A DNA stretch of 64,000 bases from Octopus vulgaris (Eukaryota). The position numbers and the translations under genes were made by a program. Below are positions 50,920 to 51,779 of this stretch, piece after piece. Position 1 is the first letter of the stretch, and every line of letters begins with the position of its first letter. The stretch covers positions 8,432,001 to 8,496,000 of the forward strand of contig OX597820.1 of the NCBI GenBank assembly GCA_951406725.2. Reading direction: 5' to 3'. The notes beneath the pieces are model-generated. The model did no database searches. It worked only from the letters and a program-made list of their open reading frames with translations, and was not told where the DNA came from.

Positions 50920-51096
50920 AAATGTTCTTTTATAAAATTATTTTAGCATTTCTCTTCCATATATATATATATATATATATAGATTCAAATGAATATGGTA
51001 CTTAATTTAGATGCACCAGAATTTTGTATGGTGTTATCCATAAAAATCCGTGGGGTGATTATAATCAAAATAAGCAACAAGAATGACTCCGGTAAT

Positions 51097-51182
51097 TTGG
51101 TACGATCGTTTCGTACTACATCATTTTATTAAATGTTGTAAGTATTACAACAATTTTAAAATGCTGGGTACTCATCAGCCAA
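51097..51182 (-). ncRNA. Canonical type I hammerhead ribozyme with extended stem II
   Basis: TTGG-CTGATGA-GTAC...GTAC-GAAAC-GATC-GTA-CCAA. Confidence 0.82.
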
Positions 51183-51499
51183 TTATAGAGGTTTTCCATT
51201 AATACAAAAATGTTCATATCAAGTGGAAACATTATAGAGAAGGTAGATATATAGACAAAGATGTGGATTTAAATTTTAGAACATTTGAGGTAGTGGAGCC
51301 CATCAACTGACTGACTAAGATTCGGTTGTTCCAGACTACTGTAAGGTTGGAACAAATGAATCTTAGTCAGTCAGTTGATGGGCTCCACTACCTCAAATGT
51401 TCTTAAAATTTAAATCCACATCTTTCTCTATATATCTACCTTCTCTATAATGTTGCCACTTGATATGAAAATTTTTGTATTAATGGAAAACCTCTATAA

Positions 51500-51585
51500 T
51501 TGGCTGGTGAGTGCTCAGCATTTTAAAACTGTTGTAATACTTACAACATTTAATAAAATGATGTAGCACGAAACGATAGTACCAA
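51500..51585 (+). ncRNA. Inverted sister hammerhead (A6G core change)
   Basis: TTGG-CTGGTGA-GTGC...GCAC-GAAAC-GATA-GTA-CCAA. Confidence 0.65.
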
Positions 51586-51779
51586 ATTACCGGAGTCATT
51601 CTTGTTGTTTATTTTGAATATATATATATATATATATATATATACACACACACATACATACATATATATATATATATATATATATATATATATATATATA
51701 TATATATATATATATATATACATGCTTATTTATATGTTTTAAAAGAAACGATTTTATATTAAACTGAGATTCCTCAATA

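Follow-up and report, generated by a model that had tools for sequence, protein, structure and literature searches.

At one locus of Octopus vulgaris, two copies of a hammerhead ribozyme motif lie on opposite arms of a fold-back, and the same stem II pair is A-U in one copy and G-C in the other. The sequence-only reading of this DNA took the two changes to be a linked compensatory double substitution, and hence direct covariation evidence for the RNA fold. The question that the locus raises is whether the two changes belong together or arose as unrelated steps in a decaying repeat.

A fold-back of two truncated element copies within an intron

The window (the whole stretch of DNA that we analysed, 64,000 nt) contains a fold-back whose arms meet head to head near 51349 with zero spacer, and the outer ends of both arms pass into (TA)n. 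Arm-to-arm comparison confirmed the fold-back and both stem II base differences. The extent first given to it, 51065 to 51617, was right at the right end; the left arm reaches about 83 nt further, to about 50977, by way of a tail. The features of the fold-back are as follows.

50959-50981, strand not applicable: (TA)n target flank, left
About 50977-51349, minus strand: left arm, 5'-truncated 3' end of a Hydra-type Penelope-like element, including a tail of about 83 nt (50977-51059)
51349-51617, plus strand: right arm, inverted 5'-truncated element copy, tailless
51618-51720, strand not applicable: (TA)n/(CA)n target flank, right
51094-51184, minus strand: type I hammerhead motif with intact core, from sequence and family covariation
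51178-51172: CUGAUGA of the left motif
51171-51168 with 51116-51113: stem II of the left motif, closing a 51-nt hairpin extension
51112-51109: GAAA of the left motif
51109-51102: palindromic stem III of the left motif
51103-51101: GUA of the left motif, with the predicted cut after A51101
51498-51588, plus strand: second hammerhead copy, damaged (A-to-G in the core at 51507, C-to-A in stem III at 51578 and a private T-to-C at 51567)

Comparing 51065-51330 with 51351-51617 (about 266 nt), we counted 12 substitutions and one 1-nt indel. Stem II reads GTAC...GTAC in the left arm (A51169, T51115) and GTGC...GCAC in the right arm (G51513, C51567), with the two changes 54 nt apart. The left arm is 96-97% identical to other family copies, and the right arm likewise, with largely the same top copies. 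When the differences were polarised by 40 other loci, six changes were private to the right arm; only one of the six is A-to-G on the element's sense strand, and on this ground we rejected A-to-I editing as what made the arms differ. A repeat finder run on the whole window gave output dominated by microsatellites. The fold-back is a head-to-head pair of 5'-truncated Hydra-type Penelope-like copies in intronic (TA)n, an ordinary insertion of a known kind and one decaying copy among hundreds.

The host intron was placed by homology. Protein P0001 is colinear with 58396-58073, 47154-46879 and 46465-45896 on the minus strand, and the splice sites are in-frame GT-AG; on these grounds we infer that the fold-back lies inside intron 1 of a CABIT-like gene, gene B, whose best protein match is from Argonauta hians. 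The left hammerhead is sense to gene B within this long intron, as had been proposed.

58075-58396, minus strand: gene B coding exon 1, 70% identical to P0001 residues 1-108
47127-58074, minus strand: gene B intron 1 (10.9 kb, GT-AG), inferred by homology, houses the fold-back
46882-47126, minus strand: gene B coding exon 2, 53% identical to P0001
45896-46450, minus strand: gene B coding exon 3, 79% identical to P0001

Exon 3 has a Pfam CABIT match (E 1.3e-4) of 22 bits, below the 24-bit cut-off. Exons 3 and 2 are joined in contigs of three sequencing runs that we guessed to be RNA, and a fourth run reads through; contigs over the left arm derive from many family copies. Elsewhere in the window, a second CABIT-domain exon (35054-35986, plus strand; Pfam E 2e-15) faces gene B and is 24% identical to exon 3. 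There are also decayed LINE-type reverse transcriptase pieces on the plus strand at 30188-31325 (Pfam RVT_1) and about 6500-8900, and a Tc1-like transposase remnant, recognised by eye, at 4941-5841 on the minus strand.

The parent is a Hydra-type Penelope-like family

Each arm gave about 1800-2100 first-look candidates genome-wide. In longer copies, the 3' end is preceded by more than 1 kb of non-coding sequence and then by the end of an open reading frame, and the left-arm sequence is continuous with the endonuclease-coding end. Reading-frame pieces linked to this same 3' end carry reverse transcriptase (RT) motifs and a C-terminal endonuclease (EN), namely DKT, YRDD, a CxCX5C linker, CxxC before a conserved E and CxH after N. 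The linker and the CxxC/CxH residues around E and N were found in translations of L099, L103 and others, and DKT, a modified DKG, in 12 of the 20 RT-bearing loci. A Pfam search matched a longer-copy frame to GIY-YIG (E 0.0018; 19 bits, below the 22.6 cut-off) and gave no RVT match to the pieces. The N-terminal RWK was not found in the 20 loci, whose N-termini are broken or possibly missing, and one doubtful RWK was found in L169.

The insertions themselves fit the same picture. Among 172 copies, the 3' end is the tail end (50977) in 65 and the short end (51060) in 74, and (TA)n comes after 154 of 172 short or tail ends (80/88 short, 74/84 tail). At locus L108, a copy with the reading frame has, at its 5' end, an inverted copy of 701 nt that lacks the tail. 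We found 35 head-to-head fold-backs in the 221 fetched loci, which are a non-random sample, and the tail is on exactly one arm in 33 of the 35. An RT with a C-terminal GIY-YIG upstream of the 3' repeat, an inverted 5' copy and a one-sided tail mark an EN+ Penelope-like element (PLE); the change of DKG to DKT, the CxCX5C and CxxC/CxH motifs and insertion into (TA)n mark the Hydra clade. Assigned by these motifs and the (TA)n target, the parent is a Hydra-type PLE, and the Penelope-type context proposed earlier was borne out.

Several members of the family have features of their own. In L091, L095, L099 and L103 (about 800-1500), the parent reading frame has a long asparagine-rich insert between the RT thumb and the linker. 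L093, L095, L097 and L106 are near-identical long copies with common flanks near contig ends, probably subtelomeric duplications, and L170-L177 on C29 appear to form a tandem array spaced at 9 kb.

The two stem II changes occur independently among family copies

Among the copies at 40 other loci, chosen for their similarity, 40 of the 43 that cover 51169 have G there, and T stands at 51115 in 46 of 46. A gapped pattern left open at both sites gave 456 genome matches, of which 210 read G..T, a G·U pair. A..T makes up 62 of the first 100 listed, counted by eye, and most of the remainder beyond G..T. The partner is T in about 450 matches and, under a slightly looser pattern, non-T at 8 places: C on G at four (one of which is the right arm itself), C on A at one, and A at three. 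These counts overlook copies with indels or flanking changes, and a pattern with G and the left arm's neighbouring C matched two unrelated copies and was uninformative. Thus, A and G at 51169 are each carried by about half of the family, opposite a U that is almost fixed.

C at 51115 is a roughly 1% sporadic change on G and A backgrounds alike. Across 172 copies, a sample enriched by design for C at 51115, background T-to-C change at 46 T sites has a median of 0.6% and a mean of 1.3%. C is slightly commoner on the G background than expected, which is the direction that the sequence-only reading would predict and counts against our own; the excess is not significant (4/5, binomial p 0.15 against 47% G; 5/7 known copies when loci L045 and L086 are included). 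At covered positions, the five further alleles private to the right arm are missing from the other G-C copies. The A/G variant at 51169 was present in the contigs of each of four public runs, and no C at 51115 was found among the 40 of 42 variants at 3% or more that were listed, although contigs drop rare variants. When 12 substitutions were dropped on two arms in a simulation, 1.2% of trials gave one of the 31 pairs the look of a Watson-Crick swap; this is the chance per fold-back, and 35 fold-backs of the family were present in the 221 loci.

The two sides of this pair do not change together in a lineage (G·U 210, G-C 4, A·C 1). Aligning the family copies for both stem II haplotypes, as had been suggested, recovered A-U and G·U as common types and G-C as no lineage of its own. 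The two changes were found independently among copies, an outcome that the sequence-only reading had itself listed against its claim. Because C occurs at the background rate and A/G is polymorphic, the 51169/51115 pair is not direct covariation evidence, and the linked double substitution does not hold up; nor does this pair alone imply that the arms came from different templates. The U-to-C change in the right arm is likely a neutral mutation that followed insertion.

Compensatory change is found at other pairs of the hammerhead

The pattern is different at the adjacent stem II pair, 51170/51114, where the contigs of the public runs had revealed a variant: T at 51170 goes with A at 51114 in 456 matches. 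C at 51170 was found in 67 matches, with G as partner in 57 (one of which belongs to another family) and A in 10, counted by eye. G at 51114 gave 300 matches; by eye, the first 100 listed comprise 39 main-family copies with T and 22 with C at 51170, and the rest of that hundred are related families or chance. The series U-A, U·G, C-G between subfamilies probably reflects one event. A Fisher p value for this pair, for which a count was estimated and related copies were treated as independent, was not relied on. In the C-G subfamily, a stem III pair has gone from G-C to A-U with the palindrome kept; the linked haplotype occurs in 15 copies, and both stem III sites are CpG and also change singly.

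Related families add further cases. In L195, one stem I pair and two inner-hairpin pairs have changed from U-A to C-G, and a more distant family has one copy that is also G-C at 51169/51115. In an alignment of 18 rows chosen by hand, both partners change at 8 of the 18 pairs, a number reached by 1 of 500 shuffles; for further pair types, the observed number was reached by 499 of 500 shuffles. Stem II is 96% paired in these rows, and 51169/51115 is A-U in 10, G·U in 7 and G-C in 1. The rows come from related sequences, and the eight of family 2, misregistered in stems I and III and the inner hairpin, were scored there as unpaired. Covariation of stems, as expected for a type I hammerhead, was thus found between subfamilies and related families, in few independent events and hand-picked rows. 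It is supportive of the predicted hammerhead fold, through stem pairs other than 51169/51115.

At L195:691-797 and L195:1487-1593, a related family has a hammerhead with a long stem II, and its tail is homologous. L183, L184, L200, L201, L204, L205, L209 and L210 (about 1480-1590) contain a second family, which is older; its stem II region spans 54 nt and its palindromic stem III is longer. In L184 and L210, a CxxC-E endonuclease-like remnant lies upstream, and this second family is likely also Hydra-type.

The intronic hammerhead is predicted to be masked

The conserved core (CUGAnGA, GAAA and GUH around stems I-III) is intact in the left arm, as the canonical CUGAUGA first noticed there suggested, and has an A-to-G change in the right arm. 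The right-arm states at 51507 and 51578 occur in 1 of 152 and 1 of 165 copies. The left stem III octamer self-pairs over 8 bp at -10.0 kcal/mol, with a loop of only 2 nt in the monomer; the self-duplex of the right-arm stem III has -0.5 kcal/mol. CpG-type stem III changes are found in 4-7% of copies, which points to unselected decay, and the left arm is as heavily changed as other copies in decay.

Masking of the motif by a duplex of roughly 260 bp had been proposed, and as a prediction it was upheld: when the minus strand was folded, 258 arm-to-arm pairs had a probability above 0.5 and all hammerhead stems had probability 0, so that complete masking of the left hammerhead is predicted. Even when the left arm is folded alone, stem III pairs with a probability of about 0.001, and the motif likely needs a dimer partner. 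Dimeric PLE hammerheads were reportedly described by Lunse et al. in 2017. The right arm is antisense in the host transcript and damaged, and therefore cannot be that partner. The intronic left hammerhead is likely silent.

Rfam gave no ribozyme match here. A search of 51000-51620 at E up to 10 returned 8 matches, none of them a ribozyme or hammerhead, and for the whole window the best 150 of 294 rows were all microsatellite- or hairpin-driven miRNA matches. The family data support a hammerhead that Rfam misses and whose stem II is unusually long.

Alternative readings and the number of templates

A right arm drawn from a truly compensated G-C lineage would make the arm comparison direct covariation evidence after all. 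Both arms do have a Watson-Crick pair at 51169/51115, four of five C alleles sit on G, and the distant-family copy is G-C too. We consider this reading very improbable, given G·U in 210 copies, C at the background rate, G-C copies that lack the other right-arm alleles, and contigs of four runs that all have A/G and show no C among their 40 listed variants. If the fold-back were a host regulatory switch, the sense hammerhead would be released once the duplex is edited or unwound and would then cut intron 1 of gene B. RNA editing occurs in cephalopods, the sense core within the intron is intact, and a 258-bp duplex is a plausible editing substrate. We nevertheless regard such a switch as extremely unlikely, since stem III hardly pairs even in the isolated arm and the left arm is as changed as other decaying copies; moreover, metazoan PLE hammerheads showed no cleavage as monomers (PMC4209133), and likewise none when the element's protein was missing (PMC11167929).

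Whether one template or two gave rise to the arms bears only on the origin of the left-arm A, and either answer is compatible with unrelated changes at the stem II pair. At five subfamily markers, the arms of 26 of 35 fold-backs match, 7 differ at one marker, 1 at two and 1 at three, and rare alleles are common to both arms in 8 of 26 fold-backs; most fold-back arms therefore derive from one template or source. L051/L052, whose arms differ at three markers, and L143, at two, are the best candidates for two-template or converted arms. At the present locus, the left arm has three family-polymorphic alleles missing from the right arm (51324C, 51212C and 51169A), all three of which L142 and L014 also combine; the copy nearest to the left arm, L133 (5/247 differences), is A-type. 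The left-arm A may therefore be inherited from another template instead of mutated in place. Two element RNAs, or two pseudo-LTR versions in one multimeric RNA, could have been copied in one insertion by priming from both cut ends, with an A-type template on the left, a G-type template on the right and the private C arising later. We hold this to be quite possible while leaning against it. Purified Penelope protein extends both strands and is a predicted dimer, according to the parts of that report drawn on here (PMC11167929), and 9 of 35 fold-backs differ at one or more markers. Against it stand the marker-matched majority, the rare alleles shared between arms, the G-subfamily state of the left arm at most other markers, and the 51169A-51212C linkage, which is not significant (p 0.13). 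Patchy haplotypes would also follow from gene conversion or recurrent mutation, and the sample of loci is non-random.

It is rather doubtful, but conceivable, that a minority of Penelope fold-backs are chimeras, the present one among them, with a different element RNA copied at each end of a single cut. On the same view, these octopus Hydra families have a variant hammerhead with a long stem II that standard descriptors fail to catch. If so, arm markers would be a genome-scale readout for two-ended priming, as opposed to self-priming on one template, of inverted pseudo-LTRs. Comparing arm markers is a cheap test of how inverted pseudo-LTRs form, a point left open in the accounts cited here.

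A proposed origin of the locus

We are confident that the A-U and G-C pairs are the outcome of two unrelated steps by way of a G·U wobble, in head-to-head truncated Hydra-type Penelope copies in intronic (TA)n. In this scheme, the element's endonuclease would cut (TA)n, and reverse transcription would start at two family sites, the tail end and the short end, one for each arm. Both products would end early, and their 5' ends would be joined. On one side of the pair, the A/G variant that is common in the family would give an A-U/G·U difference, and a U-to-C change in the right arm, likely neutral and after insertion, would turn G·U into G-C. The hammerhead would belong to the parent's pseudo-LTR, with selection on the fold operating in source elements; this would explain why subfamilies differ by compensated pairs and the two dead arms do not. 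The left motif would probably be silent in its intronic position, because the arms form a duplex of about 258 bp and its palindromic stem III could fold only with a second sense copy or with the element's protein. The locus calls for caution: by way of a G·U intermediate, two arms of a repeat that is dead can look as if they covary.

Comparison with known systems

In titles and abstract openings, with subscription papers and bioRxiv supplements outside reach, we found neither the long stem II nor two-template arms of this family. The Hydra clade, which includes Hydra-1_Obim, is marked in the sections of Craig et al. (2021, PMC8557442) used here by DKT, the CxCX5C linker, CxxC/CxH around E and N, and (TA)n targets. 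The octopus family shares these marks, a GIY-YIG-like domain, and a 3' hammerhead with a 3-4 bp stem III and a GUH cut site. It differs from the Hydra elements described in those sections in its 3' non-coding part of more than 1 kb, its tail (about 83 nt against 30-40) and the RWK that we did not find. Its hammerhead differs from that of Hydra-1_Obim, and its CUGAUGA-GAAA spacing is 59 nt, against about 12-24 in the listed Hydra hammerheads (PMC8557442, File S2).

Inverted pseudo-LTR insertions of EN+ PLEs with a one-sided tail have been described (Arkhipova et al., 2013, PMC3846280; PMC8557442). As far as the portions of PMC3846280 considered here go, its insertions have the same head-to-head inverted 5'-truncated copy with the tail at one end only (33/35 here), whereas both arms here are non-coding stubs of less than 400 nt, and those portions compare no arm haplotypes; the asparagine-rich insert of the parent reading frame resembles the N-rich inserts of rotifer Penelopes in the same account. 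Metazoan PLEs have dimeric or minimal type I hammerheads whose monomers do not cleave (Cervera and de la Pena, 2014, PMC4209133). From the excerpts of that paper compared here, the octopus motif has the same short stem I, palindromic stem III and G10.1-C11.1, the same opposite-strand motif pairs 100-700 bp apart and covariation between consensus families, and the self-pairing octamer of the left motif is its dimer signature. Unlike those hammerheads, the octopus family has a stem II that forms a long hairpin with an inner stem, known here from sequence alone. In the purified PAc Poseidon element of Anolis, reverse transcription starts at two internal sites (Frangieh et al., 2024, PMC11167929). 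In the passages of that work at hand, these correspond to two 3' ends downstream of the hammerhead cut, as in the octopus family, and copies of both elements keep sequence 3' of the cut site. PAc Poseidon belongs to a different PLE clade, and by analogy with it the octopus family would use a two-start mechanism.
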